64,000 nt of DNA, taken from positions 1,445 through 65,444 of the forward strand of contig JAVHLJ010000006.1 in assembly GCA_031082205.1 (NCBI GenBank), in the 5' to 3' direction. The translations under genes and the position numbers were made by a program. How positions within the stretch are numbered: the first letter of the stretch is position 1; each line of letters opens with the position of its first letter. Shown piece by piece: positions 15,176-58,065 of this stretch. The notes beneath the pieces are model-generated. The model ran no database searches, was not told the DNA's origin, and was given only the letters and a program-made list of their open reading frames with translations. Source of the stretch: Elusimicrobiales bacterium. GTDB taxonomy: Bacteria > Elusimicrobiota > Elusimicrobia > Elusimicrobiales > UBA9959.

Positions 15176-15248
15176 TTGTCCTCTCCTGGTCCGGCGGCGG
15201 GGGGAAACGGCGGGAGGCTCCGCGCGCGGCGGGGCCTCCCGCGGGCGG

Positions 15249-23831: not shown

Positions 23832-25070
23832 ATGTCGATGAGTTTCCGCCAGACCGACCTTACCGTGAATTCGGGTGACAGCAATTTTTCCGTGCGCATA
23901 CGCAACGCGCGCGTGGAGGACGCCAGGCGCATACAGGTGCTCTACGCCGAGGTCTACGGCCCCAATTACTCCGTTTCACTGGTCTCCGACAAAGCCAAGA
24001 TGCTCCACGCGATAACCAGCGACGACTATGTCTGGCTGGTCGGGGAGCACAACGGCAGGATAATAGCCAGCCAGATAGTGCAGATAGACCCCGCCAACCG
24101 CCTGGCCAAGGCGCTGGGCGCCGTGGTCTCCCGCGAATACCGGCGCCACAACCTGATCTATTCCATGATGGAGATCATCATGGAAAGCGTGACGAAGAAG
24201 CACAAGCTGGTGGACGCGGTGTACGCCACCACCCGGACCGTTACCGCGGCGCCCCAGAAGATACTCAACAACATGGGCTTCTCCGCGCTGGGGATATTCC
24301 CCAACGCGCACAAGGTGTACGAGCACGAGACCCACTGCCTGACCGCCTACTACGTGATCCCCGCCTGGGGCAGGCGCCGCAGGCCCGTCAGGATACTCAA
24401 GCAGATAGAGCCGTTCTACAGGCTGGCGCAGCGCGAGCTTCTGGCCAAGCTGCCCGGCAAGGAGCTCGAGCTCGGCCGGCCGAAGATCATGCCGGAGGGC
24501 TACATCGACGAGAATCCCCAGCCGGGGCGCCATAACGAGAACCTGATACAGTTCGAGACCATACAGGCGCCGAGTTTCGTCTCCGCCCGATTCAGGAAAA
24601 TGGGGACCAGCGGGGTCTTCTCCAACTCGTACGTGCCTTTCCACAAGCCCAACCTGATGCTGGTCTCCCACGACCAGAAGACCGAGATCTACATGCAGTA
24701 CAACCCGCAGGACCACTACTCCGTGATACTGGGGGGCAACACCGTGGTGACGGATTTCGCCCTGCTCCTCAACAGCGTGGCCGAGGTGATACGCGGCATG
24801 AACGTGAGCTACCTCGAATGCCTGGTCGACGCCTACACCCCCGAACTCCAGCGCCAGGCCATGCACGCCGGCTTCCTGCCCAGCGCCTATTTCCCCTCCA
24901 TGCGCCAGGTCGGCCGCAAGAGGTGGGATTATATCGCCTTCTCCCGCTCCTTCGAGATACTGGACTTCCGCAAGGTCAGCCTCATCCGGACCTACCGTTC
25001 CTACCTCAAGGAGTACATAAAGCTCTGGAACGAAATGTACGTGGAGACGGCCCTGAGGAGCCGGCATTGA
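23832..25070 (+). CDS. GNAT-family N-acetyltransferase, apparently two tandem GNAT-like halves
   Basis: 412 aa. The N-terminal VRIRNARVEDARRIQVLYAEVYG...ALGAVVSREYRRHNL is a GNAT-like core. The C-terminal half again looks GNAT-like (YLECLVDAYTPELQRQAMHAGFLPSAYFP). Confidence 0.5.
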   Translation: MSMSFRQTDLTVNSGDSNFSVRIRNARVEDARRIQVLYAEVYGPNYSVSLVSDKAKMLHAITSDDYVWLVGEHNGRIIASQIVQIDPANRLAKALGAVVSREYRRHNLIYSMMEIIMESVTKKHKLVDAVYATTRTVTAAPQKILNNMGFSALGIFPNAHKVYEHETHCLTAYYVIPAWGRRRRPVRILKQIEPFYRLAQRELLAKLPGKELELGRPKIMPEGYIDENPQPGRHNENLIQFETIQAPSFVSARFRKMGTSGVFSNSYVPFHKPNLMLVSHDQKTEIYMQYNPQDHYSVILGGNTVVTDFALLLNSVAEVIRGMNVSYLECLVDAYTPELQRQAMHAGFLPSAYFPSMRQVGRKRWDYIAFSRSFEILDFRKVSLIRTYRSYLKEYIKLWNEMYVETALRSRH

Positions 25071-26227
25071 TGGCGCGCGCCATCTCCACGCCGATTTCCT
25101 CGCCGCTCGGAGGGCGGAGCGCGATGGACCGCCTGATGGAGGCGCCCGCCTATGACCGCTCCGCGCGCTCGGGAGCCCTTTTCCTGGAGGCCATGCGCGA
25201 GGCCGCCCGCGTCCATTGCCGCCGCAATCCCCGGTTCAGGGGGCTGTGGAAGCTCGCCGGCTTCTCTCCCTCCGACCTGCGCGCCGAGCCCGACCTGGCG
25301 CGCATGCCCCACGTGTTCGTGGCGGCGCTCAAGGAGAGGGACTTCGTCTCCATCCCCCGCCGGGAGATAGTCCTGGAGCTGACCTCCAGCGGCACCTCCG
25401 GCCAGCGCAGCCGCACCGTCCTGGACCAGGGCTCGCTGCTGCGCGTGCGGCGGATGGTATGGCGGATCTTCGGCGCCCTCGGCATGGCCGGGGACGGCGC
25501 GGTCAACGATTACCTCTGCTTCACCTACGATCCCCGCGTGGCGAAGGACGTCGGTACGGCCTTCAGCGACGAGAGCCTCACCGGCCTCACCCCGAGGGGG
25601 GAGGTCTTCTACGCGCTGCGCTGGGACGCGGCGAAGAAATCTTTTTATTTCGACATGGCCGGGGCCCTGGCCGCGCTGGAGCGCTTCGAAAGCTCCGGCC
25701 GCCCGGCCAGGCTGATAGGCTTCCCGGCGCACGCCATGGCCGTCTGCGACGAGTTCCGCGCGCGGCGCGGCCGCGCCGTGCGGCTGCATCCCGGCAGCTG
25801 GGTCATAACCGGCGGCGGCTGGAAGGACAAGCAGGACCGCGCGGTGGACAAGGGCGAGATGCGCGCCCGCCTGGCGGCCTCGCTCGGCCTGGGCCCGGAG
25901 CGCGTGCGCGACCTCTTCGGCATGGTAGAGCACGGCGTGCCCTACGTGGACTGCCCGCTCGGCAACTTCCACGTGCCGGCCTACAGCCGGGTCATCGCCC
26001 GCCACCCGGCCACGCTGGAGCCGCTGCCCTACGGAGAGACCGGCCTGCTGCAGTTCATAACCCCGTACCTGTCCAGCTACCCCTCGATCTCGCTGCTCTC
26101 CAGCGACAAGGGCCGGCTGGAGGAGCGCTGCTCCTGCGGGCTCGGCGGCCCCGTCATGCATATCGCCGGCCGGGCCGGGGTGAAGAAAATGAAGGGGTGC
26201 GCCATCTCGGCGTCCACGATGCTATGA
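25070..26227 (+). CDS. LuxE-like acyl-protein synthetase / adenylate-forming enzyme
   Basis: I place the start at ATG 25070, overlapping the GNAT stop (TGATG). LELTSSGTSGQRSR is an AMP-forming P-loop-like motif. Overall layout matches the LuxE family (PF04443-type) as I recall it. Confidence 0.6.
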   Translation: MARAISTPISSPLGGRSAMDRLMEAPAYDRSARSGALFLEAMREAARVHCRRNPRFRGLWKLAGFSPSDLRAEPDLARMPHVFVAALKERDFVSIPRREIVLELTSSGTSGQRSRTVLDQGSLLRVRRMVWRIFGALGMAGDGAVNDYLCFTYDPRVAKDVGTAFSDESLTGLTPRGEVFYALRWDAAKKSFYFDMAGALAALERFESSGRPARLIGFPAHAMAVCDEFRARRGRAVRLHPGSWVITGGGWKDKQDRAVDKGEMRARLAASLGLGPERVRDLFGMVEHGVPYVDCPLGNFHVPAYSRVIARHPATLEPLPYGETGLLQFITPYLSSYPSISLLSSDKGRLEERCSCGLGGPVMHIAGRAGVKKMKGCAISASTML

Positions 26228-28872
26228 AAAGACCAGACGCTTATATTTTCGGGAGGGAAACGGCCAGGACCTCGCCCTGGACCCCGGCCGAGGTGGAGAA
26301 GGTCTGCCTGCGCGCCCGCGCCGCGGCCGACAGGCTGCGCGCGGCGGGGCCGGACTATGTCCTGGACACGCTGGCCGAGGTCGGCCGCTTCTGTTCCGAC
26401 GAGAGGAGCCCGTGGTACCGCGAGGCCTTCCGGCAGGTCAGGGAACAGTCGGGCTTCTCGCGCGAGACCATAGCGGCCTCGATGAAGGTGCTGCCCGCGA
26501 TCTTCGACCGGGGGGAAATGGAGAAAAGGCTGCGCCTCGAGCTTTTCCTGCCGGGCGCCCTGGACGCCTGCGTCGCCCGCGAAGGCTACGACGGCCTGGT
26601 CACGGCCGTGCCGCGCGGCGTGGTCCTGCACGTCGGGGCGGGCAACGTCTTCCTCGGCATAATAGACTCGCTTCTCATGGGAATGCTGACCCGCAACGCC
26701 AACGTGGTCAAGACGGCCAGCGGCGGCGCGGCTTCCATGGTCCATTTCGCGCGGGCCCTTAAGAAATGCGACCGCAGGGGCCTGCTGGCCTCCTCGGTGG
26801 CCGTTCTCAGCTGGCCCGGCGGGGCCGCCGGGGTGGAGGAGGCCGCCGCGCGCAGCGTGGACGCCGTGATGGTCTGGGGCGGAGAGGAAGCGGTTGCTGC
26901 CTACCGGCGCGCCGCGCCGTCGCAGGTCCACGTGGCCGGCTTCGGCCCCAAGGTCAGCATGGCCGTCGTCTTCCCGTCGGCCCTGGGCTCCGCCGGCGCG
27001 GACGCCGTGGCGGAGAGGCTGGCCCGCGACGCCAGCGTCTGGGAGCAGAACGCCTGCTCCTCGCCGCACACCGCTTTCATCGTGGACCCGGACCTGCGCC
27101 GCAGGGACCCTCTGGCCCGCGGTTTCTGCTCCGCCCTTTCCGCCGCTTTCGAGAAGCTGCGCCGCGAGCTGCCGCCCGGCGAGCTCTCCTTCGACGAGCA
27201 GGTCGAGATCACCCGCGCCCGCGAGCTGGCGAAGGCGGACATGGCCGTCGGCGAGGCCTCGCTCCGCAGCTCTTTCCCTTCCACCGCCTGGACCGTCATA
27301 TCGGAGAAGGACCCGGTGTTCCGCGTCTCCGCTCTCAACCGCACGCTCTACGTGAAGTGCGTGGCCTCGTTCAGGGAGGTAGAGAAGGCCGCGGCCGCCT
27401 ACCGCGGGCACATACAGACCGCCGGCGTGGCCGGCACCATGGAGGAGCGCGAGGAGGCCGCCCGCCGGCTGGCGCCGCTCGGCATAGCGCGCGTCACCAG
27501 GCTGGGCGCCATGCTGGAAAGCCCGGCCGGCTCGCCTCACGACGGGACCTTTCCCATGCGCGAGCTGGTGCGCTTCACCGGCGTCGAGGGAGGCCCCGCG
27601 CCGGCCGACGTCCTTTCCGGGCTCGTGGAGCACGCCAGGGAGAAAAGCCCTTTCTACCGCCGCCACCTGCGCGGCGTGAAGAAGATATTTTCGGAGGAGG
27701 AGTTCCGGTCGGTGCCCCTGCTGACCAAGGAGCACATCCTGGCGAACACGCCGCCGGACAGCTCCGACATGTTCACCGGACCCGTAGGTTCCGGGGTCTA
27801 CTTCGCCAGCGGCGGCTCCACCGGCAGCCCCAAGTACATCTTCTACGACTGGAAGGAGTTCGACCGTCTCTGCCGGATGGTCGGCCGCGCCTACATGAGC
27901 GCGGGACTGGGGGCGGAGGACAGGGCCGCCAACCTTTTCGTCGCGGGCAATCTCTGGTCCAGCTGGGTGGGAGTAGAGCGCGCCCTCTCCACCACCCCGG
28001 CCGTCAGCGTGCCGGTCGGCAGCGCGCTGCCCATGGAGAGCATAGTGAAATACCTCTCCGAGTTCAGGGTGACGGCGATCATAGGCCTCCCTTCTTTCCT
28101 GCTCAAGCTGGCGCAGTACTGCGAGGAGGACCCGGCGCGCCGGAAGTTCCCGCTGCGCTACATCTTCTACGGCGGCGAGTACGTCGGCCCGGAGATGAGG
28201 GCCTACTTCGGCAGGGTCTTCCCCGGGGTCCGGCTGCGCTCCGGCGGCTACGCCACTGTCGACGCCGGCCTGATAGGCTACCACTGCGCGCATTGCGAGG
28301 GAGGGGTCCATCACCTCATGCGCTCCGAGCAGTACCTGGAGATACTGGACCCGGAGACCTGGAAGCCGGTATCCGGCGGCGGCGTGGGCGAGCTCGTCGT
28401 GACGGTCCTCAACAAGCGGCACATGCCGATAATCCGCTTCAGGACCGGCGACCTCGGCCGCTGGCTGGAGGGGCCCTGCGCCTGCGGCGGCTCCGACCCC
28501 CGCTTCGAGATACTCGGCCGCTGCGACGACCGCATACACGCCGGCGGGGCTCATATCTTCGTCAGCGACATCTCCCGGGCGATAGCCTCGGTGAAGGGCC
28601 TCAGCCTGCATTTCCAGGTGGAGATCTCCGCGGGCGCGTCAGGCGACCGGCTGAAGCTGCGCGTGGAAACGCGCGGCGCGGCCCCGGCCCCGAAAGGGAC
28701 CGCGTCCGCGCTGCTGGCGGCGCTGAGGAAGAACTGCCGGGACATGGCGGACTCGCTGGACATGAAGTGGCTGGCCCCGCCCGAGCTGGAGCTGCTGCCG
28801 CCGGGCGCCATAGAGCGCGTGGCGCGCACCGGCAAGATACGGCGCGTGATAGACCGCCGCGTGAAGGCCTGA
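26224..28872 (+). CDS. Fusion: LuxC-like acyl-CoA reductase (aldehyde-forming) + PaaK/F390-synthetase-like adenylate-forming ligase
   Basis: ATGA start/stop overlap with the LuxE-like gene. The N-terminal half has VLHVGAGNVFLGIIDSLLMGMLTRNANVVKTASG and WEQNACSSPH (LuxC-type catalytic Cys region). The C-terminal half has SPFYRRHL...VPLLTKEHI and FASGGSTGSPKYIFY (PaaK-like). Confidence 0.6.
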   Translation: MKRPDAYIFGRETARTSPWTPAEVEKVCLRARAAADRLRAAGPDYVLDTLAEVGRFCSDERSPWYREAFRQVREQSGFSRETIAASMKVLPAIFDRGEMEKRLRLELFLPGALDACVAREGYDGLVTAVPRGVVLHVGAGNVFLGIIDSLLMGMLTRNANVVKTASGGAASMVHFARALKKCDRRGLLASSVAVLSWPGGAAGVEEAAARSVDAVMVWGGEEAVAAYRRAAPSQVHVAGFGPKVSMAVVFPSALGSAGADAVAERLARDASVWEQNACSSPHTAFIVDPDLRRRDPLARGFCSALSAAFEKLRRELPPGELSFDEQVEITRARELAKADMAVGEASLRSSFPSTAWTVISEKDPVFRVSALNRTLYVKCVASFREVEKAAAAYRGHIQTAGVAGTMEEREEAARRLAPLGIARVTRLGAMLESPAGSPHDGTFPMRELVRFTGVEGGPAPADVLSGLVEHAREKSPFYRRHLRGVKKIFSEEEFRSVPLLTKEHILANTPPDSSDMFTGPVGSGVYFASGGSTGSPKYIFYDWKEFDRLCRMVGRAYMSAGLGAEDRAANLFVAGNLWSSWVGVERALSTTPAVSVPVGSALPMESIVKYLSEFRVTAIIGLPSFLLKLAQYCEEDPARRKFPLRYIFYGGEYVGPEMRAYFGRVFPGVRLRSGGYATVDAGLIGYHCAHCEGGVHHLMRSEQYLEILDPETWKPVSGGGVGELVVTVLNKRHMPIIRFRTGDLGRWLEGPCACGGSDPRFEILGRCDDRIHAGGAHIFVSDISRAIASVKGLSLHFQVEISAGASGDRLKLRVETRGAAPAPKGTASALLAALRKNCRDMADSLDMKWLAPPELELLPPGAIERVARTGKIRRVIDRRVKA

Positions 28873-28885
28873 CCGCCGGCCGCTT

Positions 28886-28894
28886 TGGTAGAAT
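28886..28894 (+). promoter_or_regulatory. Candidate extended -10 promoter element for the downstream aminopeptidase
   Basis: TGGTAGAAT (TGnTAnAAT) lies 48 nt upstream of ATG 28942. It is followed by the tandem palindromes CGGGCCCGaCGGGCCCG and the SD GGAGG. Confidence 0.35.
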
Positions 28895-28941
28895 ATCCGC
28901 GGGCCCGACGGGCCCGGCAGACGCGCGCACGGAGGATACAC

Positions 28942-30147
28942 ATGAGCGTTTACACGTCGAAGCAGCTGGAAAAATACGCCGATACTCTTATCTGGGGCCT
29001 GACCACCTCCCGCCCCAAGCCTTTCAAAAAATACGACAACATCCTGGTCAGGTGCGACCTTGAAGCTCGGCCGCTCGGCGAGACAGTCTACCGCAAACTG
29101 GTCGGTCGCGGTTTCAACGTGGTCTTCAATTTTCTCGCCACTCCCGCCATAGAGCGCTCCTTCCTCGAGCGTTCAGACCCCAGGCAGCGCGCCTTCCTCG
29201 GGTCCTGGGACGAGGAACTTTATGACAACCTTAACGGGTATGTCTACATAAACGCGCCGAGCTCGCTCACGCATCTGAAGGATATAGATCCAAAGCGGCA
29301 ATCCGAGGCCGCCATAGCGCGAAAGCCCCTGTTCAGGATCCGGGATAAACGCGAGGAAAAAGGGCTGTTTTCCTGGGTTCTCTGCACATATCCCACTGAA
29401 GAGCTCGCCAGCAGGGCGAAACTTACGCTGAAGGAATACGCCGCCCAGATCGCCAAGGCCTGCTATATCAACGAGCCCGACCCGGCGAAGAAATGGAACG
29501 CCGTCTTCAAAGAAGTAACGGCCATAAAGAAATGGCTCAACGCGATGCCCATTGACACCATACGCACGGAATCCGCCTCGATGGACTTTACGGTGAAACT
29601 GGGCGAGCGCAGGAAGTTCCTGGGCGTGAGGGGTCATAATATCCCCAGCTTCGAGATCTTCACCTCGCCCGACTGGCGCGGCACGCGAGGCGTCTATTGC
29701 GCCAACCTGCCGACCTTCCGCGGCGGCAATTACATCGAGAAGATACGCCTGGAATTCAAGGACGGGCGCGCCGTGAGGATCTCGGCCGCGAAAGGCGCTG
29801 ATTACGTCAGGAAGATCATGGCCACGGACAAGGGGGCCTCGCAGATAGGGGAATATTCGCTGACCGACCGCCGCTTCTCCAGGATAGACAAGTTCATGGC
29901 CGACATACTCTTCGACGAGAACCACGGCGGGAAGTACGGCAATTGCCACGTCGCCATCGGCAGCGCCTATACCGACACCTACGCCGGGGACCCCTCGAAG
30001 CTGACCAAAGAGGCCAAGGCGAAGCTTGGCTACAACGACTCGGCCGTGCACTGGGATATGATCAATACAGAGGACAAGAAGGTCACCGCGACGCTAAGGA
30101 ACGGTAAAAAAGCGACCATCTACGAGGGCGGGCAGTTCAAGTACTGA
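28942..30147 (+). CDS. M29 family aminopeptidase (AmpS/PepS/aminopeptidase T type)
   Basis: MSVYTSKQLEKYADTLIWGL and GNCHVAIGSAY are typical of M29. Start at ATG 28942 with SD GGAGG. Confidence 0.75.
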   Translation: MSVYTSKQLEKYADTLIWGLTTSRPKPFKKYDNILVRCDLEARPLGETVYRKLVGRGFNVVFNFLATPAIERSFLERSDPRQRAFLGSWDEELYDNLNGYVYINAPSSLTHLKDIDPKRQSEAAIARKPLFRIRDKREEKGLFSWVLCTYPTEELASRAKLTLKEYAAQIAKACYINEPDPAKKWNAVFKEVTAIKKWLNAMPIDTIRTESASMDFTVKLGERRKFLGVRGHNIPSFEIFTSPDWRGTRGVYCANLPTFRGGNYIEKIRLEFKDGRAVRISAAKGADYVRKIMATDKGASQIGEYSLTDRRFSRIDKFMADILFDENHGGKYGNCHVAIGSAYTDTYAGDPSKLTKEAKAKLGYNDSAVHWDMINTEDKKVTATLRNGKKATIYEGGQFKY

Positions 30148-30165
30148 TATTCCCGGTCTTCTTAT

Positions 30166-30205
30166 AAGGAGGGCCCTCCGCCGGTCACGGCGGAGGGCCC
30201 TCCTT
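30166..30205. terminator. 18-bp perfect hairpin between convergent aminopeptidase genes
   Basis: AAGGAGGGCCCTCCGCCG-gtca-CGGCGGAGGGCCCTCCTT. There is no strong U-tract on either side. Confidence 0.6.
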
Positions 30206-30219
30206 AATGCGGACCGGAC

Positions 30220-31398
30220 TCAGGGATTCCGGGTCCAGGAGCTTTTACTTAATTTTTTTCCGTCCAGGAGAACCTCCCGTCCGGCGCCGCCGTTGAACGA
30301 CACTACCAGATCGACGTGCTGTGAAGAATGGTTGGCGGAACCGGACCGGAGCAGCCTGCTGAAACGGCGTCTCCCTCGCGCGTTCTTCAGGTCCGCGCCG
30401 AAAGCTTCCGGAAAACACGTGCCAAGGGCTATATGCATGGTTCCCCCGATCTTTTCGCAGAAAAGGGGATGCTTTAGCGGCAGGGATAGCCCCGTGTTTA
30501 TTCCGAAAGCCACTTCTCCCACCCGTTTCGCCCCGCTGTCGGTGCGTATTATCTCGCTTAACTTCCGCCCCCCGTTTTTTGATCTGAACGCGACGACTTC
30601 TCCGTCCGTGAATTTGAGGTACGTTCCGGATATGATCTCGCCCTGGACCAGGATCGGCATGTCCAGGAAGATTTCTCCGTTCACGCTGTTGGCCAATGGG
30701 CTGGTGAACACTTCTCCCTGGGGTATATTGATGCCTTGCAGGTCGTTCAGAATGCGCTGGCCCTCTATGATCATTTTCAGTTCCAAGATCCGTCCGCCCG
30801 GTCTGGGACTGGTGAGTATGGACAGCTCCCTTGTTTTTGAGAGCGCGGCCGATATTTTTTCCGCCGTCTTTAGTGTTCTCGAGAATGGTTCGGTGGCCCC
30901 GCGGATGACGGCTTCCGCGTATTTCCTGAAAGGGAGCCCCTCTATGCGCGCGAAAGCCTCGGTCGGATACATCGTCACGACCCACTTTTTCTCCCTGCGT
31001 ATTTCGCGCATCCCGGCGTCCAGCTCGAGGATCCGTTTCATGACAGGCCCTTCGGCGCATTTTGCCGCCTCCGGGTCTTCCATCCCCAGTATTTCTATTA
31101 CCTTGTCCGCTGCTTCGTTGCGCAGCCGCTGCCAGGCCGGGGCCGCGCGCAGGTTGCGGAGATCTCCCAGCCGGGATACGGCCGCGCTCCAGATCCGCCC
31201 TCTTTCATTGTCGGGGGGGGCCATCGCGATGTCGGCCATGCCGCCCGACCTGAGTATCTTTTCCTGAAGCAGTTCTATCAGCGGCCAGGCGGCGTGTTCG
31301 CCTCTTATCATCACCGTTTCGCCGGGTCTTACGCCTCCCAGGGACCTTGTAAGGAGGATGTCCGCCCATTTGTCGAGCAGGTTGCGATGTTTATCCAT
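30220..31398 (-). CDS. M29 family aminopeptidase (second paralog)
   Basis: MDKHRNLLDKWADILLTRSL and GGTMHIALGTCF. ATG 31398 chosen, 32 nt downstream of the histidine kinase stop. Confidence 0.7.
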   Translation of the reverse strand: MDKHRNLLDKWADILLTRSLGGVRPGETVMIRGEHAAWPLIELLQEKILRSGGMADIAMAPPDNERGRIWSAAVSRLGDLRNLRAAPAWQRLRNEAADKVIEILGMEDPEAAKCAEGPVMKRILELDAGMREIRREKKWVVTMYPTEAFARIEGLPFRKYAEAVIRGATEPFSRTLKTAEKISAALSKTRELSILTSPRPGGRILELKMIIEGQRILNDLQGINIPQGEVFTSPLANSVNGEIFLDMPILVQGEIISGTYLKFTDGEVVAFRSKNGGRKLSEIIRTDSGAKRVGEVAFGINTGLSLPLKHPLFCEKIGGTMHIALGTCFPEAFGADLKNARGRRRFSRLLRSGSANHSSQHVDLVVSFNGGAGREVLLDGKKLSKSSWTRNP

Positions 31399-31430
31399 AA
31401 AATTCCCGCCTCGTCGGATTCGGTCCGGTC

Positions 31431-33599
31431 TTACTTCCACGGCGGCTCCTTGCCGGTCACGGTCAGCCATGGAAGATGGGCAAAGGCCTCGGGCGCATGT
31501 CCTGTCGCCAGCCGGATGTTCTTGTAGCCCGCTGCACGCAGCCGCAGGGCGACTTCCTCCCCTTTCTCTCCGTCGCCAAGTTCCGAATCTATGTATATGC
31601 GGCTGTCCTTGCTTATCTCCAGCTCCGCGGAAAAGAAGTCGGCAGCGGAGGGGAATATGCGTACCGGTTCTCCCCTGGTTTCGGCCGAGGTCTTCCAGGT
31701 CATCCGCGTAAGCGCGTCATCGTCTATTAGCACGGTCAGCGCTTTGACCGCCGGGGTTCCCGGTCTTATGCGTATAGGGACCAGCCCGGCCAGTCCTTTA
31801 GGTATGATACGGATCCCCATGTTAAGGCAGGACGCGATAATGTCCGGTTCCTCGTACCGGCTGGTCGCCAGGACCGCCCTCTTTTGCAGGGAGAACTCCG
31901 CCGCCAGGCTCAGCCCGGTTTCGAAAGTGTCGGCCAGTTCGTAATCGAGAAGGAATAGGGCCGTATTGGCTGCGCCGGTGTTTTCGTTCATCCAGGCGCG
32001 TAAATCAGCGGAAGACGAGAGATGCACGGCCGTTATCCCGCCCCTGCCCGAACTCAGGGACTCCAGCCTGCCGCGCCATATCTGATGTATGCTGCTGTCG
32101 TCGTCCAGGATCACCAGAGTCCCGCCTTTTTCGATGCTTATCTCAGGCATGAACCAGGCCGGCGCCTCCGCGCGGGGGAGTCGTATCTCGGCTTCCGTTC
32201 CCTTTCCAGTGGAAGAACTAAGCGAAAAGGTCCCGTTCCAGGACTCGGTTACTGTCTTGGCGTAATGGACCCCCAGCCCGGATCCGCCGGTTTTTCCGTG
32301 GGTCTCTCCCCTTTTGCCTATTTTGGCCAGGATACCGGGCGGTATGCCTTTGCCGTCGTCGCGGACCCTTATGACCGCTTCATCGCCTTCCCGGTCCAGG
32401 GAGACGGTCGCGTAACCTTCCCTATCCATGGCCTCGACGGAGTTGTTTAGAAGGTTGGAGAGGGCCCGCTTAAGTTCGGAGGGACGAACCTTGGCGAAGA
32501 GGCCATAGGAGTCCCTCCCGAAGCAGGAGTCGATGCGGACGCCTATTTTGCCGCGGAACTGAAGACGCTTCTCGCTCACTATGGATTCTATGAGCGATGA
32601 GATAAGGCAGGCGGAAAGCGGCGCCTCCTGTTCTTTCGGCGCCGGGGCGCCGCCGTCTTCGCGGAACGGCAGGCTCCTGTTCCGCTCTATCAGGTCGTTC
32701 GCGATATCCCTGATCCTGTCTATGGCGCTCCGCAGCAGGCGGCGCTTCTCCTCCGGAAGGGAGGAGATGTCTTTGTTCAGGGAATCCATGGCCGCGAGGG
32801 GCGAGCGGATATCGTGCGCTACCTGGGCGGCCTGTTTGCCGAGCGCCGAGAAACTGGCCTCGCGCTGATGGGCTTCCTGGGAGGCGATAAGTTTTTTCAG
32901 CGAGTTCTTGAGGACGTCCAGCAGCACTTTCAGTTCCGGGCTGCTTTTCCGCGGCGCCAGGCGCGCGTCGAAGTCCTCAAGCGGTATCGGCCATTCTGTG
33001 CCTATTTTTTTAAGATTCGACACGAATTCGTCCAGCGGTCTCAGGATCGCCCTGGTGTTGTAGAGAAGCACGGCCGTCCAGGCCGGGATGAAAAGCAGGA
33101 AAAAGAAGAATACGCTGTTGAGCTGCCGGAGGAAATTCCCGTACGCCGTTTTCCAGTAATAGGCGATTTCCACGGCGCCCCAGTATTTCCCCGTATCGTC
33201 CCTCACGTCGGAACGGAGCACGGCGACCTTTTCCGCTCCGAGCACCAGGGACTCCTGTATCGCCCGCGTGGCGACCGCGACCCGGAAGGACTCTATTTCA
33301 AATACGTCCTTTTCCGTGCTCAGATGGACGGGCAGGCCCCGCTCATCGAGTATCGCCAGATAGGCCATTTCGTCCTTCTTGAAGAGGCCGGTGGAAAGCC
33401 TGGACAACTCGAAATAATTGGATATCTGCAGGCCGCTCAGCGCGATGTTGGCGACCTGTTCGCCGAAAGAGGCTCTGTCGGACAGGAACTCTTTCTTGTG
33501 GCTCTTTTCAAAACGGTACAAGTGGGATAGAAAAATCCCCAGGAGCATGGAGAAGCTCATCGCTATCACGAGGAGCACTAGTTTGAGGTTGGTTCTCAT
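31431..33599 (-). CDS. Hybrid sensor histidine kinase with two C-terminal receiver domains
   Basis: I place the start at ATG 33599 (MRTNLKLVLLVIAMSF). Two TM segments flank a ~170-aa extracytoplasmic region. H-box AHDIRSPLAAM, N box LLNNSVEAM, DDGKGIP, GGSGLGV. Then REC1 (LVILDDD...FLLDYEL...IPKG) and REC2 (VLIDDD...IYIDSEL). Confidence 0.8.
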   Translation of the reverse strand: MRTNLKLVLLVIAMSFSMLLGIFLSHLYRFEKSHKKEFLSDRASFGEQVANIALSGLQISNYFELSRLSTGLFKKDEMAYLAILDERGLPVHLSTEKDVFEIESFRVAVATRAIQESLVLGAEKVAVLRSDVRDDTGKYWGAVEIAYYWKTAYGNFLRQLNSVFFFFLLFIPAWTAVLLYNTRAILRPLDEFVSNLKKIGTEWPIPLEDFDARLAPRKSSPELKVLLDVLKNSLKKLIASQEAHQREASFSALGKQAAQVAHDIRSPLAAMDSLNKDISSLPEEKRRLLRSAIDRIRDIANDLIERNRSLPFREDGGAPAPKEQEAPLSACLISSLIESIVSEKRLQFRGKIGVRIDSCFGRDSYGLFAKVRPSELKRALSNLLNNSVEAMDREGYATVSLDREGDEAVIRVRDDGKGIPPGILAKIGKRGETHGKTGGSGLGVHYAKTVTESWNGTFSLSSSTGKGTEAEIRLPRAEAPAWFMPEISIEKGGTLVILDDDSSIHQIWRGRLESLSSGRGGITAVHLSSSADLRAWMNENTGAANTALFLLDYELADTFETGLSLAAEFSLQKRAVLATSRYEEPDIIASCLNMGIRIIPKGLAGLVPIRIRPGTPAVKALTVLIDDDALTRMTWKTSAETRGEPVRIFPSAADFFSAELEISKDSRIYIDSELGDGEKGEEVALRLRAAGYKNIRLATGHAPEAFAHLPWLTVTGKEPPWK

Positions 33600-33616
33600 A
33601 GCCTCGTAAAACAGCT

Positions 33617-35173
33617 TTACCTGCCGCAAAAGACGGCTCTCGAGGGTCTCGAGTCCTTGCCGCCGCCGGCGATGCTCACATGGTACATTTCGATGTCGTT
33701 GAAAGATGTGTTGGGGTACTGCACGCCTTCCACCCATTTCTGGACGGTGCCGTCGAAGATGTCCCCGGAGTAAAGCGGTATTATGTACGCTTTTTCTATC
33801 AGCATATCGTTCACCATCCTGAAAAGGGAGGTCCGCCTGGACGGGTTCATTTCGGTCCTGCATTTGTCCAGCAGCGTGTCCAGTTCCTTGTCCGCCTGAC
33901 TGAACATTTTTTTGCCGGAGTCCGATCGGTATGCCGACAAGAGAAAATAGCTGTCCATGAAAGGCCAGTCGCTGCCCAGCAGGGTCATATGCCAGAGTCC
34001 GGATTTGAAATTGGCGGCGATGCCGGAATTATCGGTCTTTTCCGGTATTATCCGCAGCCCTGACTTGGCCGCGTAAGCCGCCAGCCCGTCCAGCAGCGGC
34101 CCCGTGTAGGGGATGTTGCCCGTGAACTGGAGCTTTATCGGCGGAACATCCTTGAATTCTTTATACCCGGCCTTGCGGATAAGACGGAGCGCCTCGGCAG
34201 GGTCGTAGGCCGTCCCTTTGAACCCCGGGTCATAACCTACACGGCCTTTCGGGATATACGACGCCGATCTGCCGAGCAACGGGAACTCCGAACTGAGCCC
34301 GTCGAGCACCCGGTCGTAGTCTATGGCTCTCGCTAAGGCCTGACGGACGTATTTGTTGTCCAGCGGCGGATTGGAGGCGTTCAGGGTGAATATGAAGGAG
34401 ATTATCCCGTTGGTGAAAATACGCTTAAATCCGGAACGGTCGGCGCCCTTGGGGAGATTATATGGGGCGATGTCGTCCAGTTCGCCTTTGACGAAGTCCT
34501 CGAACAGGCGCTCCTTGTCGGGATATATGAAATAGACGATGCCGGGGAGTTTTGGGGGGGACATGAAATAGTCCGGGTTGGCTTTCAGGATCAGGCTGTT
34601 GTCGTTCCGGCATTCCAGTGTGAAAGGCCCGGTCCCTGTCGGAGCCTCTTCCGGCGACCCGCCGTACCCTTTTTTTATGATCGACGCCGCCGAACCGGCG
34701 AGGATGTGCAGAAGATAGGGGGTGGACTGCCTCGTCTCCACTATTACGGTGTCCCCCTCCGCCTTTATCCCGGAAATGTCGTTGAACTGCCTTACCTGGT
34801 CCGACCCCCTGATCATGCGCTGCAGCGAGAATACCACATCGTCGGGCGTAAGTTCGGACCCGTCCACGAAGCGGACCCCTTTCCTTATACGGAAGGCGTA
34901 TTTCCGGCCGTTGTCCGAGACCGACCAGCTCTCCGCCAGCATCGGTTTCCATCTGTAGTCCTTGTCGTAAGCGACCAGCTGGTCGAACAATTGACGTATC
35001 ACCTGCACCTCGTTGCCGGAAGTGCCCTTCACGGGGTCCAGGCTGATAGGCATGGCGTAGAGTATCCGCCGGTAATAATCGTTACGGGGGACCGGCTTTT
35101 CATCTCCGATCGCCGGGCCGGCGAAGGCCGTGACGATGGCGAGAACCGAGATCATGACAGGGCCGCTAAACAT
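33617..35173 (-). CDS. Extracytoplasmic solute-binding protein, family 5 (peptide/nickel Opp/Dpp type), orphan
   Basis: Signal peptide MFSGPVMISVLAIVTAFAGPAIG with SD GGGAG upstream of ATG 35173 (alternative ATG at 35203). Typical SBP_bac_5 layout (LDPVKGTSGNEVQVIRQLFDQLV...). No permease or ATPase genes are adjacent. Overlaps the radical SAM stop by 8 nt. Confidence 0.75.
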   Translation of the reverse strand: MFSGPVMISVLAIVTAFAGPAIGDEKPVPRNDYYRRILYAMPISLDPVKGTSGNEVQVIRQLFDQLVAYDKDYRWKPMLAESWSVSDNGRKYAFRIRKGVRFVDGSELTPDDVVFSLQRMIRGSDQVRQFNDISGIKAEGDTVIVETRQSTPYLLHILAGSAASIIKKGYGGSPEEAPTGTGPFTLECRNDNSLILKANPDYFMSPPKLPGIVYFIYPDKERLFEDFVKGELDDIAPYNLPKGADRSGFKRIFTNGIISFIFTLNASNPPLDNKYVRQALARAIDYDRVLDGLSSEFPLLGRSASYIPKGRVGYDPGFKGTAYDPAEALRLIRKAGYKEFKDVPPIKLQFTGNIPYTGPLLDGLAAYAAKSGLRIIPEKTDNSGIAANFKSGLWHMTLLGSDWPFMDSYFLLSAYRSDSGKKMFSQADKELDTLLDKCRTEMNPSRRTSLFRMVNDMLIEKAYIIPLYSGDIFDGTVQKWVEGVQYPNTSFNDIEMYHVSIAGGGKDSRPSRAVFCGR

Positions 35174-37082
35174 TGGATATCGCTCCCATGTCCGCAAGGT
35201 CATTGAGGTGCCGGATGAGGTCTTCTTTTCCTCCCAGGCCTTCCTCGCGAGGCATATCGCCGGGCCTGGCTGGCCGGCGCTTCGCTGCCTTCAGCGCCTT
35301 GAACAGGCGCGGTTCCAGCTCGAAAGACTCTATGTCCTCCCCCGTGTCGACGAGGCAGAGGAGCGTCCTCCCCGGCCGGGGCCTTTCGGGCAGCGGCCCG
35401 GGCCCGAGATAATCGGAAAGCCGTATTCTCGATTCCAGCAGAAAGGCTTTTCCCGAGAGGCGGTACGGTCTGCCGACGTCGAAAGGGCGCGATTTGCGGG
35501 GCGCGGCCGTCCCCCTGGCCTTTACCATTTTCAGAAGAAGCTTCTCGTATCGGAATATTTCCCGGAAGACGAGGAACTCGGATGGTTTTAGTTTTTTGCG
35601 AATGCAGGCCGTCAGTCCGGGCTTCCACGCCCGCCCGCTAAGGACAGGAAAGACGGCGGCCGGCGGTAATCCGGGGACTGAAAATAGGTAGTTGAAAGAG
35701 CGGTAATGTCCGACCGCCAGTTCCTGCAGCCTCCAGGTCGCGTGCGGCAGCAGCAGGCTTCTTCCCGGCCTGTCCTTAAGGGCCCAGAACTGCCTGAATA
35801 TTTCCGGGTGCCCGTGTATCATGCCGCGGGTCTTCCCGTCGCTGGCTATCAGGGGGGGGGTATAGTAGGAATTCTTCGCGCTGACCTTCCGGGTCCGCTC
35901 CGCTATTTCCGTTCCCGGAAGGGGGAACAGGTGGAGGATGTTCACCCGCTCCGCGCCCATGACCCGCAGCCTGAACGCGAGCCGCACCGAGGCGTTACGG
36001 TCCGAGTCGGACTCCTGGGGGAACCCGAGGATGAAGGAAAAAACGGGGTTGAGGCCGCTGGCGATGAGGTCAGAGGCCAGCGGGAGGACTTTCTTGACGT
36101 CTACGTTCTTCCCGATCGAGTGCTGTATCCTCCGGGATCCGCTCTCGATCCCCACGAAAAGACCGATGCAGCCGGCCTTTTTCATGCCATCCATCAGCCC
36201 CCTGTCCCCAAAAAGGTGTTCCAGCCGCCCGCTGGCGCCCCAGGAGAGCGCTTTGCCCTCGAGTTCCGAGCAAAGCTTTACCGCGAACTCCCTGTCGCAG
36301 AGCAGGTTGTCGTGCACGAGGGAGAACCTTGCCCCGGGGAATTTGGCGGCCAGGGACTGCATTCGCCCGGCTATTACGGCCGGCGGGAGCACGCGGTATT
36401 TCCGTTCCCACATCAGGGACGTGGAGCAGTACGAGCATTTATACGGACAGCCGGTCCCCGCCAGCACCAGCATGAGGCACGCGGGGTTAATCCGGCGGTA
36501 CCCGCCGAAATCGACAAGGCCGTAGTCCGGTTCTATGGTCGTCACGTCAGGCCCCGAGGACTGCGTCGGCGTAGATCTCGCGGCGCCGCTTCCCGGCTCG
36601 CGGTATGTCAGTGACGGGACCTCACGGAAGTCCAGGCCGTTCAGCGCGGCGCAGAGCCTGGTCAACGGTGTTATCCCGTCGTTCCTGATCACGAAGTCGA
36701 CGAAAGGGAAATCCCGTATTATATTTTCCGCTACGAAGGTCGCATGAGGCCCGCCCATCACTATACGCGAGCCGTATCTGCGTTTTATGTACTCGGCGAG
36801 CCTGACCGACAGGTGGAAGTTGTCGCAGAATCCGCCCAGCCCGACCAGGTCGAAAGGGCCCCTTTTCCTGAAAACAGAATCGACGCACCTTTCCTGCGCT
36901 TTCGCGGGGGGGAGCCGTCGCATTTTTTTATCGCAGTATTCGAAGGGGATGTCCAGGATGGTCGTTTCGGTGCCCGGCGAGGCCTCTTTCAGCCCGGAAG
37001 CCAGGTATACCAGGTGCAGGGGATATTCCAGGTCGCGATTTGAAAGCATCGCGAGCATTGGATTTATCAGGAGTACTTTCAT
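35166..37082 (-). CDS. B12-binding (class B) radical SAM enzyme with ~150-aa C-terminal extension
   Basis: MKVLLINP... is a B12-binding-domain N-terminus. CX3CX2C cluster motif GCPYKCSYCS. 638 aa. I do not recognise the C-terminal region after about aa 480. Confidence 0.8.
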   Translation of the reverse strand: MKVLLINPMLAMLSNRDLEYPLHLVYLASGLKEASPGTETTILDIPFEYCDKKMRRLPPAKAQERCVDSVFRKRGPFDLVGLGGFCDNFHLSVRLAEYIKRRYGSRIVMGGPHATFVAENIIRDFPFVDFVIRNDGITPLTRLCAALNGLDFREVPSLTYREPGSGAARSTPTQSSGPDVTTIEPDYGLVDFGGYRRINPACLMLVLAGTGCPYKCSYCSTSLMWERKYRVLPPAVIAGRMQSLAAKFPGARFSLVHDNLLCDREFAVKLCSELEGKALSWGASGRLEHLFGDRGLMDGMKKAGCIGLFVGIESGSRRIQHSIGKNVDVKKVLPLASDLIASGLNPVFSFILGFPQESDSDRNASVRLAFRLRVMGAERVNILHLFPLPGTEIAERTRKVSAKNSYYTPPLIASDGKTRGMIHGHPEIFRQFWALKDRPGRSLLLPHATWRLQELAVGHYRSFNYLFSVPGLPPAAVFPVLSGRAWKPGLTACIRKKLKPSEFLVFREIFRYEKLLLKMVKARGTAAPRKSRPFDVGRPYRLSGKAFLLESRIRLSDYLGPGPLPERPRPGRTLLCLVDTGEDIESFELEPRLFKALKAAKRRPARPGDMPREEGLGGKEDLIRHLNDLADMGAISNV

Positions 37083-37101
37083 CGGCCCGGGCAGGAATTT
37101 A

Positions 37102-37134
37102 CAAATAGAAAGGGACCATGCGCCTATGGTCCCG
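37102..37134 (-). terminator. Candidate leaky intrinsic terminator/attenuator between the small ORF and the radical SAM gene
   Basis: On the minus strand: GGGACCAT-AGGCGC-ATGGTCCC followed by TTTCTATTTGT. It lies 25 nt after the small-ORF stop and 30 nt before the radical SAM ATG. Confidence 0.5.
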
Positions 37135-37159
37135 TCCTGTGCGTAATGACGTCAGCGGA

Positions 37160-37228
37160 TCAGACTATGTCCGCGTTGATACGACCGACATTGAAGTTCT
37201 TCTTCTTCACGCTGTCTATGCGTTTCAT
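37160..37228 (-). CDS. Unannotated 22-codon ORF (MKRIDSVKKKNFNVGRINADIV), candidate precursor/leader peptide
   Basis: ATG preceded by AGGGGGAttaac (strong SD, 5-6 nt spacing). Candidate sigma70-like promoter about 55 nt upstream. TGA stop followed by a hairpin. Below the ORF-track length cut-off. Confidence 0.5.
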   Translation of the reverse strand: MKRIDSVKKKNFNVGRINADIV

Positions 37229-37282
37229 GTTAATCCCCCTGGGGGCCGGAACATCGGGACCGCAAGGACCCCCGTAAAATAA

Positions 37283-37311
37283 AGTTTAGCAGAATGCGTC
37301 TCAGTTCGCAA
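37283..37311 (-). promoter_or_regulatory. Candidate promoter of the small ORF/radical SAM operon
   Basis: Minus strand TTGCGA-17 nt-TAAACT, located in the locally AT-richer intergenic region. Confidence 0.4.
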
Positions 37312-37398
37312 GGGCCGGAGGGCCCGGGTAACCCGGCATTCCCGGGTCGCGGCGCAACTGCTTTGTCCGGAGCTTTTTAATTTGGAATAATGTGATAC

Positions 37399-38646
37399 AT
37401 GAGCACACTCTTCGCGGCTTTAAGGACGGAGCGCGGCCGGCACGTGGCGCGCGGCGTTTTCCTGGCGGGCTTCTCGGCCACTTTCCTCTTCTGCGGCTAC
37501 GAGTTCATCCGCTCGCCAGCCGAATCCATCTTCATGGCCCATTTCAGCGCGGCCGACAAGCCCTACGCGCTGAGCGTGGTGCCTTTCTTCATGGCCGCGC
37601 TCATTTACCTCTACGGGCGCTCGCTCTCGGCCTTCGGCGGCTCCCGCACCATGGTCGGCTCCATGCTGGCCTCGGCCGCCGGCCTGGTCGGCCTCTATTT
37701 CGCCGTGGGCGTCTTCGGCAAGCCGGCCGCCTTCCTGCTCTACGTTTTCAAGGAAGCCTATGTCGTCATCATCTCGGAGCAGTACTGGTCGTTCATCAAC
37801 AGCGTGCTGCGCGACGAGGAGGGAAAGGTCTTCAACGGGCCCGTGGCCGGCCTGGGCGCGCTGGGCTCTCTGCTGGGCGGCTTCTTCCTTAGCCGCTACG
37901 TGGCGTCTTTCGGCACCGAGGCCTTCATCCTCTTCTCGGCCGTCATGTTCTTCCCGGCGGCCGTCCTGATACGCGGCGCCTACAAGGAGGCCGGCGAGCC
38001 GCAGCCCTCCCGCGAGGAGGCCGGCGGCCGCCTCGGCCACGTGCACCTCAGCATACTCAGGCAGAACCGCACGGTGCTCTTCATCGCGCTGGTCATCTTC
38101 AGCACTCAGGTCGTGGCTACCATGCTGGACATGCGCTTCTCGCTGCTCGTGCAGGACGCCATGCCGGACAAGGACCTGCGCACCGCCTACCTGGGCTCTT
38201 TCTGGATGTGGGTGAACAGCTTCTCCTTCTCCATGCAGTTCATCCTGGCGCCGCTGCTGCTGCGCTGGGTGCCTACCCGGGGCATACAGGCGGCCATACC
38301 GGCCGTGCACATCGTCGCCTGCGCGCTGCTGCTGCTGGCCCCGTCGCTGGGCCTGGCGGCCGGCGCCTTCCTGCTCTTCAAGGGCATGGACTATTCGATC
38401 TTCCGCGCCTCCAAGGAGACGCTCTACATACCGTTCTCCTACGACACGCGCTACCGCGCCAAGCAGGTGGCCGACGCCTTCACCTACCGCTTCTCAAAGG
38501 GTTTCACCTCGATAGTCCTGTCCATGATAAAAGCCTCGGGCGGGATGCCGGCCGGCGCCTACGCGGGGGCCGCGCTGGTCTTCGCGGCGGCCTGGCTGGG
38601 CCTCTCTTTCCCGATGACCGCGAAGCGGGAGACGGCCGCCGCCTGA
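37399..38646 (+). CDS. Polytopic membrane transporter, MFS-type, possibly TLC (ATP/ADP antiporter-like) family
   Basis: 415 aa, hydrophobic over most of its length. The N-terminus FLFCGYEFIRSPAESIF...KPYALSVVPFFMAALIYLYGRSL resembles the short Npt/TLC-like family. The family assignment is tentative. Confidence 0.45.
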   Translation: MSTLFAALRTERGRHVARGVFLAGFSATFLFCGYEFIRSPAESIFMAHFSAADKPYALSVVPFFMAALIYLYGRSLSAFGGSRTMVGSMLASAAGLVGLYFAVGVFGKPAAFLLYVFKEAYVVIISEQYWSFINSVLRDEEGKVFNGPVAGLGALGSLLGGFFLSRYVASFGTEAFILFSAVMFFPAAVLIRGAYKEAGEPQPSREEAGGRLGHVHLSILRQNRTVLFIALVIFSTQVVATMLDMRFSLLVQDAMPDKDLRTAYLGSFWMWVNSFSFSMQFILAPLLLRWVPTRGIQAAIPAVHIVACALLLLAPSLGLAAGAFLLFKGMDYSIFRASKETLYIPFSYDTRYRAKQVADAFTYRFSKGFTSIVLSMIKASGGMPAGAYAGAALVFAAAWLGLSFPMTAKRETAAA

Positions 38647-58060: not shown

Positions 58061-58065
58061 CCCCG

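Follow-up and report, generated by a model that had tools for sequence, protein, structure and literature searches.

A conserved gene cluster for a candidate ribosomal peptide, its radical SAM maturase and a binding protein with a sensor kinase in an Elusimicrobiales genome

We analysed a 64,000-nt stretch of DNA from an Elusimicrobiales bacterium (GenBank assembly GCA_031082205.1, contig JAVHLJ010000006.1, positions 1,445 to 65,444 of the forward strand), here called the window, and within it a cluster of five elements that all lie on the minus strand between positions 30220 and 37324. From 5′ to 3′, these are a small open reading frame (ORF) of 22 codons, a class B (cobalamin-type) radical S-adenosylmethionine (rSAM) enzyme, a family-5 solute-binding protein (SBP), a membrane sensor histidine kinase and an M29 metallo-aminopeptidase. 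A preliminary description had read the five elements as a candidate operon for producing and sensing a modified peptide, with overlaps or gaps of 32 nt or less after the rSAM start. The ORFs and signals were found at the coordinates first described, and the spacings agree: the small ORF lies 77 nt from the rSAM gene, the rSAM and SBP genes overlap by 8 nt, and gaps of 17 and 32 nt separate the SBP gene from the kinase gene and the kinase gene from the M29 gene, with gene starts picked by comparison with orthologues. We give an even chance to the interpretation that the cluster is a module, conserved and rare, which both makes and senses a small ribosomal peptide.

The small ORF (37228..37160) encodes the precursor-like peptide MKRIDSVKKKNFNVGRINADIV and is preceded by a Shine–Dalgarno (SD) sequence, GGGGGA (37239..37234), read directly in the DNA. 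Fourteen distinct loci of the family were compared, and in 12 of them homologous ORFs of 20 to 22 codons, each with an SD site, lie 77 to 250 nt 5′ of the rSAM gene. This bears out the earlier view that a short ORF upstream of a radical SAM maturase marks the layout of a cluster for a peptide that is made on the ribosome and modified after translation (RiPP). The ORFs share the consensus MKRVDxVxKKNF, followed by a variable tail. Across codons 2 to 12, pairwise differences number 51, 33 and 177 at codon positions 1, 2 and 3, and the small-ORF frame is the sole frame open in every locus. Judged by this pattern of substitutions, the small ORF is a real coding gene.

The related peptides are MKRIDKVNKKNFNKGRSCGEIM (L001), MKRVDKVNKKNFNNGRSNGEIF (L115), MKRVDTVKKKNFSKTKSISEVI (L114), MKRVDTVSKKNFKVARTTQIT (L117), MKCVDSIKKKNFKNGRATQID (L002), MKCVDTVSKKNFRNSRATHYN (L116), MKRVDVVKKKNIITQTVAYD (L009), MEQIDITEKRDLENSTYQQDF (L004) and MNPIDIVEKESLQDSNNTHCD (L123). 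The copy in L121 is cut by the contig end and terminates in ...YQQDF. The copy in L122 (about positions 165–230) is in frame and intact (…KRIDVVKKKKLLKTSSTDK), with AGG at the expected ATG, which is either a sequencing error, the mark of a decayed copy or a non-canonical start. Throughout the family, the N-terminal 12 residues are conserved, as is an Arg or Lys at position 16, and the last 5 to 6 residues vary. We read this distribution as that of a leader plus a core.

The promoter of the small ORF (37283..37311) is TTGCGA-17 nt-(TGc)TAAACT, with the −35 hexamer at 37311..37306, the −10 hexamer at 37288..37283 and a TG before the −10. The proposed sequence was found as described, but it matches the sigma-70 consensus at only 8 of 12 positions, and because of this score a generic promoter scan missed it. 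The promoter's support is its conservation: TTGCnn-N17-TAnACT aligns in all nine loci compared, where it takes the form TTGCgg-N17-(TGn)TAnACT with a dyad GGnCC-N3-GGCCC 5′ of it, in loci whose proteins are only about 50% identical. The window's dyad, GGCCC-TCC-GGCCC (37312..37324), is GC-rich, abuts the −35 hexamer at a conserved position and is a candidate operator. Its pattern GGNCCNNNGGNCCTTGC has one exact occurrence in the window and one per related locus; dyads stand at the equivalent position in L002/3/5, L114 and L116, with close variants in L001, L115, L117, L009 and L122. The conserved promoter dyad suggests that expression is regulated.

A sigma-54 promoter was considered for the small ORF and rejected. 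The conserved element lacks the GG-N10-GC spacing, a sigma-70-type −35/−10 pair (17 nt, TGn) is conserved in its place, and the neighbours that brought sigma-54 to mind in L001 are not conserved in the other loci. These neighbours (L001 5110–7695) comprise a 354–378-aa protein that has a Sigma54_DBD domain only and lies directly 5′ of the small ORF, with an NtrC-type sigma-54 activator near it. On the plus strand of the window, a divergent sigma-70-like promoter (TTGTCC-17-AATAAT with TG, 37363–37391) precedes a gene resembling the major facilitator superfamily (MFS) and TLC proteins (37399–38646); as it lies about 40 nt from the dyad, the two promoters may share a control region.

The interval between the small ORF and the rSAM gene contains a terminator-like hairpin (37102..37133, minus strand) with an 8-bp stem, a 6-nt loop and a T-run; read from 37133 to 37102, its sequence is GGGACCAT-AGGCGC-ATGGTCCC plus TTTCTATTTG. 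It was first described as a hairpin attenuator, and as a local structure it stands, being the highest-ranked terminator-like site within 30000–37500. The folding energy of the entire 77-nt spacer is unremarkable (z = −0.78), however, and only the local stem and T-run are notable. A stem and U-run also follow the small ORF in L001, L114, L115, L116, L117, L002 and L121; the hairpin sequence varies among these loci, and the conserved feature is therefore the structure. Rfam and tRNA scans of the window gave no matches, so that no known riboswitch or leader RNA accounts for the region 5′ of the rSAM gene.

The rSAM enzyme (37082..35166, 638 aa) was proposed to be of class B, and both its Pfam matches and its AlphaFold2 (AF2) fold bear this out. 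Pfam Radical_SAM scores 61 bits (cut-off 29.5 bits) and B12-binding scores 25.3 bits, under its 32.1-bit cut-off; C212, C216 and C219 of the CxxxCxxC cluster motif are invariant in 15 sequences. The full-length model (pLDDT 84.5) matches all the solved folds of cobalamin-type rSAM enzymes, namely AprD4, the protein methylase MgmA, TsrM, TokK, CysS and OxsB, aligning over 480–710 columns to the last five with E = 1e-16 to 1e-18. It places a Rossmann-type cobalamin-binding domain at the N-terminus, and cobalamin binding is predicted. The nearest NCBIfam family is RiPP rSAM ApyD (NF050148), at 180.5 bits against a cut-off of 750 bits, with residues 60–433 matched to profile positions 60–430 of 645; at a score so far under the cut-off, the enzyme is not an ApyD equivalog. 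BchE, HpnJ and AprD4 are among the weaker NCBIfam matches. ApyD is a cobalamin rSAM enzyme with a RiPP recognition element (RRE) that methylates a RiPP precursor next to its C-terminus, on the beta carbon of the penultimate Tyr (PMC10635010).

It had been asked whether residues 480–638 of the enzyme hold an RRE or another peptide-binding fold. The model of residues 425–638 (pLDDT 84, pTM 0.79) is a helical bundle followed by a beta-beta-alpha-alpha-alpha-beta unit, and a Foldseek search of the PDB returned TglI from the TglHI holoenzyme (8hi7_A, E = 6e-5) and NGO1945 (3dee, E = 2e-4) as the sole significant matches, with TM-scores of 0.5–0.6. TglI consists of an N-terminal helical domain and a C-terminal RRE that binds TglA, and NGO1945 of a DUF2063 domain and an RRE (PMC10880893, PMC12452194). 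A profile search of 1.84 billion representatives with the C-terminal domain found 13 matches, all from this rSAM family or fragments of it and none beyond; there was no Pfam or NCBIfam match and no PqqD/RRE sequence match. The domain is thus of RRE type by predicted fold only. About 15 full-length relatives of the enzyme (33–53% identity) are present among 5.8 billion protein clusters, and the matches that follow them span the catalytic core only. A metagenome scan with the rSAM alignment recovered distant class B enzymes (≤30% identity) and no further family members. Taken by its modelled fold, the enzyme is predicted to be a peptide maturase, and we regard the production half of the module, precursor plus maturase, as very probable.

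Another way to account for the hairpin is that the small ORF is an attenuation leader peptide that controls read-through, with a substrate other than a peptide for the rSAM enzyme and peptide scavenging as the task of the SBP and M29 proteins. A terminator-like hairpin does recur between the ORF and the rSAM gene in every locus, and many class B enzymes act on small molecules or lipids, including several of the weaker matches named above. We nevertheless consider this explanation very improbable. What is conserved in the first 12 residues of the ORF is an amino-acid motif, as opposed to a stretch of regulatory codons, the hairpin lies clear of the ORF, and no alternative anti-terminator pairing is evident in the locus alignment. 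The predicted RRE-type domain would bind a peptide, and the SBP lacks an importer.

The preliminary description had further asked whether a short ORF, an SBP_bac_5 gene and a kinase gene recur together beside rSAM homologues; all three do. The window, L001, L114 and L115 have the peptide, rSAM, SBP, kinase and M29 genes, with an MFS gene added in L115. Their order is peptide, rSAM, SBP, M29, kinase and ApbE in L002 and L117, and peptide, rSAM, SBP, M29, MFS and kinase in L004 and L121. L116 has the peptide, rSAM, SBP and M29 genes, the short contigs of L122 and L123 have the first three of these, and the partial contig of L009, which ends inside the rSAM gene, has the first two. The remaining two layouts are those of L008 (33% identity), with rSAM, SBP and GNAT genes and a kinase gene on the opposite strand, and L007 (39% identity), with the rSAM gene, a 41-codon ORF and an rSAM-SPASM-PqqD gene and without SBP or kinase. 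Of the 14 family loci, 13 have an SBP_bac_5 orthologue 3′ of the rSAM gene, and in nine loci the end of the rSAM gene and the start of the SBP gene share 8 nt. M29 is encoded in 9 of these 13 loci; it is missing from L008, and the contigs of L009, L122 and L123 are too short to tell. Nine loci have the kinase gene. Divergence is parallel in the four proteins (33–53%, 37–52%, 40–59% and 50–61% identity), and the loci include some assigned to Elusimicrobia metagenome-assembled genomes (MAGs) and one assigned to a ‘Deltaproteobacteria’ MAG.

Since the same layout recurs across loci, the gene arrangement is not due to chance. An accidental adjacency of five unrelated genes and a spurious short ORF has in its favour only the prior expectation of frequent short ORFs in GC-rich DNA; with the same set in about a dozen loci, and with overlaps, promoter and ORF all conserved, it is refuted and we give it a negligible probability. 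Every check proposed in the preliminary description that could be run, including those on the C-terminal fold and on recurrence, favoured its reading of the production half.

Two loci carry further RiPP-type genes. L007 (9001–13029) has the family rSAM gene without SBP, kinase or M29 genes, and then the 41-codon ORF MKKTTKAKGYKKPVMKTVITPKEIRDIEQPCAFTIYTVYR, the rSAM-SPASM-PqqD enzyme and, farther along, an M61/M1-like peptidase; a second small ORF and an rSAM-SPASM-PqqD enzyme as neighbours of this rSAM clade are once more a sign of RiPP biosynthesis. The Elusimicrobia locus L004 is flanked upstream (2212–4751) by a 55-codon ORF and genes for an rSAM-SPASM enzyme and an MFS protein, and downstream (13773–15494) by the gene for a RamC_N/Pkinase/LANC_like lanthipeptide synthetase; together these flanking genes form a RiPP island.

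We now turn to the sensory half of the module. The SBP gene (35173..33617, minus strand; ORF alternatively from 35203) encodes a periplasmic family-5, DppA-like protein of 518 aa from M11, with a Pfam SBP_bac_5 (PF00496) score of 194 bits (cut-off 32.4 bits). Sec signal peptides are predicted in all nine SBP orthologues. The claim that the SBP has no cognate transporter is upheld, as no Opp/Dpp-type permease (BPD_transp_1) or ABC ATPase for it was found within the 64-kb window or in any related locus; the sole permease encoded in the window is part of a PstS-type set at a distance of 26 kb from the SBP gene. Nickel and peptide binders are its best NCBIfam matches, DppA proteins are its closest solved relatives, and opine binders are also among its PDB matches. 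All nine cluster SBPs keep an Asp at the position of DppA Asp408, and the position of DppA Arg355 holds Phe or Tyr. Asp408 of DppA anchors the free alpha-ammonium group of the ligand, and Arg355 caps the carboxylate of a dipeptide. Retention of the former and replacement of the latter therefore fit a short ligand peptide whose N-terminus is free and whose length may exceed two residues. The SBP subfamily comprises 13 clusters at 44–56% identity, after which identity falls to 30%; as far as its sequence relatives indicate, it occurs almost only in these gene clusters and is as rare as the rSAM family.

Two other SBP settings were observed. In a sister clade at 30% identity (L119 8840–13785, L120 1696–5660), a gene for a sigma-54 response regulator is followed by a 45-codon signal-peptide ORF, MPKLVAAALLLASLLLALPVVESGTSSSTQIFQAIGTADGGGGGY, an SBP_bac_5 gene, a gene for an sCache_3_2-HAMP-PAS kinase that overlaps the SBP gene by 4 nt, and a hybrid kinase gene. 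These loci are without biosynthetic genes and may represent a second kind of small-peptide/SBP/kinase module. In L118 (8688–11220), a family SBP (44% identity) occurs without the class B rSAM enzyme, with a Cys-rich 45-codon ORF (...ISWFLCTCPTKEWVE) on one side and, on the other, a different radical SAM gene whose product has an N-terminal extension of about 95 aa. Both layouts fit a role of SBPs of this lineage as putative small-peptide receptors.

The kinase gene (33599..31431, minus strand; MRTNLK..., within a long ORF from 33863) encodes 722 aa arranged as a first transmembrane helix, a periplasmic domain of about 135 aa, a second transmembrane helix, HisKA and HATPase_c (as read from Pfam and the orthologue alignment) and two divergent receiver-like domains. 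HATPase_c scores 78.7 bits and HisKA 21.5 bits, under its 26.9-bit cut-off. Eight orthologues show no variation in the H-box AHDIRSPL or in the N and G boxes, and the periplasmic domain is conserved, which indicates that the kinases across loci are true orthologues, periplasmic domain included. A homologue search with the N-terminal 273 residues gave two weak matches; it missed known orthologues, and consequently it cannot establish that relatives are absent elsewhere.

At their C-termini, the kinase orthologues carry one or two receiver-like domains. The two domains of the window's kinase are homologous to each other (hhalign probability 93%), and the receiver positions DD, D, T/S and K are conserved in them. 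Alignment of each domain to CheY by hhalign gave no detection, and a joint profile searched against the PDB matched receiver domains in 9 of 11 cases, with colinear alignments and weak E-values of 0.06–1.3. We describe these domains as receiver-like, weakly detected by sequence.

Whether the SBP and kinase read the product of their own cluster is evenly balanced in our judgement, and two other roles for them have to be weighed. In the first, the cluster makes a RiPP (an antimicrobial, a metallophore or other), and production is gated by a cue other than the product, for example nickel, an oligosaccharide or nutrient peptides, to which the SBP and kinase respond. The evidence for the production half supports this explanation equally, the matches of the SBP show how diverse SBP_bac_5 ligands are, L118 has the SBP subfamily beside a different rSAM enzyme and a different small ORF, and L007 has the rSAM enzyme without the SBP. 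Yet a sensor of a generic cue would be expected elsewhere too, and this SBP subfamily is rare and almost confined to the clusters. The rSAM/SBP overlap of 8 nt is conserved, as is the Asp that binds a peptide amine, and the SBP of L118 again adjoins an rSAM gene and a small ORF, which fits SBPs that read rSAM-made peptides. Sensing of an unrelated cue is accordingly rated unlikely, though it is the strongest of the other explanations.

In the second, the role of the SBP is to handle the product, whether by conferring immunity in the periplasm, by sequestration or as a chaperone for an exported toxic peptide, and the kinase reports envelope load or self-damage. Lantibiotic clusters do carry lipoprotein immunity factors. 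Export of the SBP and its translational coupling to the maturase, by which the two would be made in similar amounts, fit this role, and L116 keeps the rSAM, SBP and M29 genes without the kinase. Nine loci, however, have an orthologous kinase that diverges along with the SBP, sensor kinases are joined in an operon to the SBPs of the sister clade where there are no biosynthetic genes, and the known SBP–kinase pairs are ligand sensors (PMC8050422). We find product handling quite improbable. What speaks for a putative physical interaction of the SBP with the kinase, modulated by the ligand, is co-conservation and the operon-fused sister clade.

The last gene (31398..30220, minus strand; ORF alternatively from 31470) encodes a divergent M29 metallo-aminopeptidase of 392 aa from M25, and its identification in the preliminary description is supported by a Pfam Peptidase_M29 (PF02073) score of 136 bits (cut-off 27 bits). 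The motifs EVFTSP, GEVA, HIALG and HVD, which we take from AmpS and aminopeptidase T to hold the Glu/Glu/His/His/Asp metal ligands, align to AmpS 1zjc. The cluster M29 proteins have no signal peptide, and orthologues in seven loci are 50–61% identical. A canonical M29 (28885–30147, plus strand; Pfam 350 bits) is encoded tail to tail with the cluster gene, 72 nt away. Because the two are 23% identical and the cluster copy has orthologues in the related loci, the latter is a dedicated paralogue and the former the housekeeping enzyme.

MFS genes lie inside the cluster in L115, L004 and L121. The divergent MFS-like gene of the window was considered as the cluster's exporter and set aside, as its product has no similarity to the MFS orthologues of L115 and L004. 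A 392-aa protein encoded upstream in L008 was likewise rejected as a hidden M29, having no similarity. A secreted protein of about 268 aa with Gly/Thr/Ser repeats (weak DUF4097) is encoded 3′ of the M29 gene in L001 (14943–15755) and L114 (7687–8487), is absent from the window and is a possible accessory gene.

Together, these parts allow a mechanism to be proposed for a module that makes and senses its own peptide. The conserved N-terminal part of the peptide would dock on the RRE-like domain of the rSAM enzyme, which would modify a residue in the variable C-terminal tail, most likely by C-methylation, as the ApyD family methylates. The cytoplasmic M29 enzyme would then remove the leader residues starting at the N-terminus and would be halted by the modification or by the size of the peptide, leaving a short peptide with a free amino terminus that an MFS pump would export. 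The DppA-like SBP would bind this peptide in the periplasm, with the conserved Asp anchoring the free alpha-amino group, and the loaded SBP would dock on the periplasmic domain of the kinase, as in LuxP/LuxQ, TorT/TorS and CBP/ChiS. The output of the kinase would pass via its receiver-like domains to an unlinked regulator, which plausibly acts at the dyad beside the −35 hexamer and would lead to autoinduction. The hairpin would be a leaky terminator after the small ORF, as after many RiPP precursor genes. It is possible, if rather less than evenly so, that the whole is a self-contained diderm peptide quorum-sensing circuit, with an rSAM-modified, M29-trimmed and exported signal, an SBP-gated hybrid kinase and tails that serve as strain-specific pherotypes.

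Several observations weigh against an interpretation of the cluster as one peptide production-and-sensing module. The link from product to SBP is one that we infer from co-conservation, and SBP_bac_5 proteins also bind nickel, opines, sugars and haem. The small ORF was looked for in L008 and was not found, and L116 is without the kinase. With the rSAM enzyme present without SBP or kinase in L007 and the SBP present with a different rSAM enzyme in L118, the parts can work in other combinations. The use of an M29 enzyme as a RiPP leader peptidase has no precedent in a leader-protease review, in which aminopeptidase activity on RiPP leaders is reported for the M1, M16 and M17 families and not for M29 (PMC10885120). 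The window has no cluster-type MFS exporter gene. The hybrid kinase with two REC domains that was first described retains its HisKA and HATPase_c domains and conserved receiver residues, but detection of the REC domains is weak: Pfam Response_reg matches the first at E = 0.13 (12.8 bits; cut-off 30.2) and the second not at all. Finally, the likeness to LuxP–LuxQ and TorT–TorS holds for the architecture (an exported SBP without a transporter, an orthologous kinase, a sister clade with kinases) but does not extend to a linked partner, as neither a response regulator with an output domain nor a histidine phosphotransfer (Hpt) protein is linked in any locus.

The closest known relatives of the module resemble it part by part. 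For the production half, the ApyD/aminopyruvatide pathway of Burkholderia thailandensis (PMC10635010) similarly pairs an RRE-containing cobalamin-type rSAM maturase with a short precursor. Unlike the apy cluster, the cluster here has no multinuclear iron oxidase (MNIO), P450 or SAM methyltransferase partner, its precursor is unrelated and its C-terminal recognition domain is a sequence orphan; the apy cluster, for its part, lacks the SBP, kinase and M29 genes. TglI and NGO1945, which are DUF2063-type partners of MNIOs, share the two-part fold of rSAM residues 425–638, yet the domain in this cluster is part of a radical SAM enzyme, does not serve an MNIO and has no sequence similarity to them. 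Cluster-encoded metallopeptidases that remove residues stepwise from the N-terminus are known in AplP (M1), PttP1/P2 (M16) and BotP (M17) (PMC10885120); unlike these, the cluster here has no endopeptidase step, and M29 would trim the whole 15–16-residue leader.

For the sensory half, the precedents are Vibrio cholerae CBP–ChiS, LuxP–LuxQ and TorT–TorS, in each of which a periplasmic SBP controls a membrane hybrid kinase via its periplasmic domain (PMC8050422). CBP is an SBP_bac_5 protein like the SBP here, but it binds chitin oligosaccharides and also feeds an ABC transporter, in contrast to a DppA-like, transporter-less SBP whose gene accompanies that of a peptide-maturation enzyme; contact between the SBP and kinase here is proposed. 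DppA also presents its ligand to a membrane signalling protein in DppA–Tap dipeptide chemotaxis (PMC8050422). DppA differs in being mainly a transporter component that signals to a chemoreceptor and not to a kinase, and its dipeptide-capping Arg355 is replaced here.

Autoinduction of RiPP loci is familiar: nisin is the signal for its own two-component system (NisK–NisR). The nisin/subtilin loci and the streptococcal shp/rgg rSAM RiPP loci are alike in that expression is tied to peptide sensing. These are monoderm systems in which the peptide either is sensed by the kinase itself or enters the cell to reach a cytoplasmic Rgg regulator, and in which the response regulator is encoded in the cluster and there is no SBP co-receptor. 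Rgg/SHP systems are covered in PMC13361665.

Class B rSAM RiPPs, kinase-mediated RiPP autoinduction and SBP-gated kinases are thus known separately; new are their combination, the family of precursors, the recognition domain without sequence relatives and the role given to M29. The combination had been put forward as undescribed, and no description of it was found in NCBIfam, Pfam or the literature searched; no family-specific NCBIfam or Pfam model exists for any component of the cluster.

Ribosomal-peptide signalling is textbook knowledge in Gram-positives and hardly known in diderms, to which the phylum Elusimicrobiota belongs, and the module is a concrete, testable candidate for it. It comprises six genes, the candidate signal is a peptide of at most 22 residues, and the putative receptor is soluble and suits binding assays. 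If the proposal is true, the sister SBP clade (L119) would make a small peptide gene with an orphan family-5 SBP and a kinase a wider diderm signalling architecture. Transporter-less family-5 SBP genes, usually labelled ‘ABC transporter substrate-binding protein’, may encode signal receptors. The cluster also offers new RiPP parts: the precursor family, a class B rSAM clade fused to a TglI/DUF2063-like domain without sequence relatives, and a first candidate for a leader peptidase of the M29 family. Since the cluster occurs in uncultured Elusimicrobiota and in other organisms represented by MAGs only, heterologous reconstitution is the realistic route.

The cluster differs in composition from its surroundings, with a GC content of 57–61% and a GC content at third codon positions (GC3) of 0.68–0.76, compared with 63–70% and 0.85–0.93 around it. 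Its neighbours are ordinary chromosomal genes, including those for fumarate reductase, fumarase, RtcB with archease, acetate kinase with phosphotransacetylase and a Pho-type set, and PorV-like and porin proteins are also encoded in the window. At the start of the window (8–2944, plus strand), an asparagine synthase (GATase and Asn_synthase) is fused to a family-9 heptosyltransferase domain and followed by a methyltransferase gene and a WbqC-like gene, a group that looks like a glycan-modification set. A 412-aa GNAT-containing ORF (23832–25070, plus strand) lies 5′ of an unusual fatty-aldehyde-type module, a 1218-aa fusion of a LuxC-type acyl-CoA reductase and an AMP-binding, acyl-protein synthetase-like domain (25216–28872, plus strand). 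On the minus strand, a 980-aa protein (54105–57047) joins a receiver domain to a PPDK_N domain (phosphoenolpyruvate-utilising, ATP-grasp), and its gene adjoins a set for an OmpR-type regulator, a PAS kinase, a porin, PstS and PstC (57377–63155).

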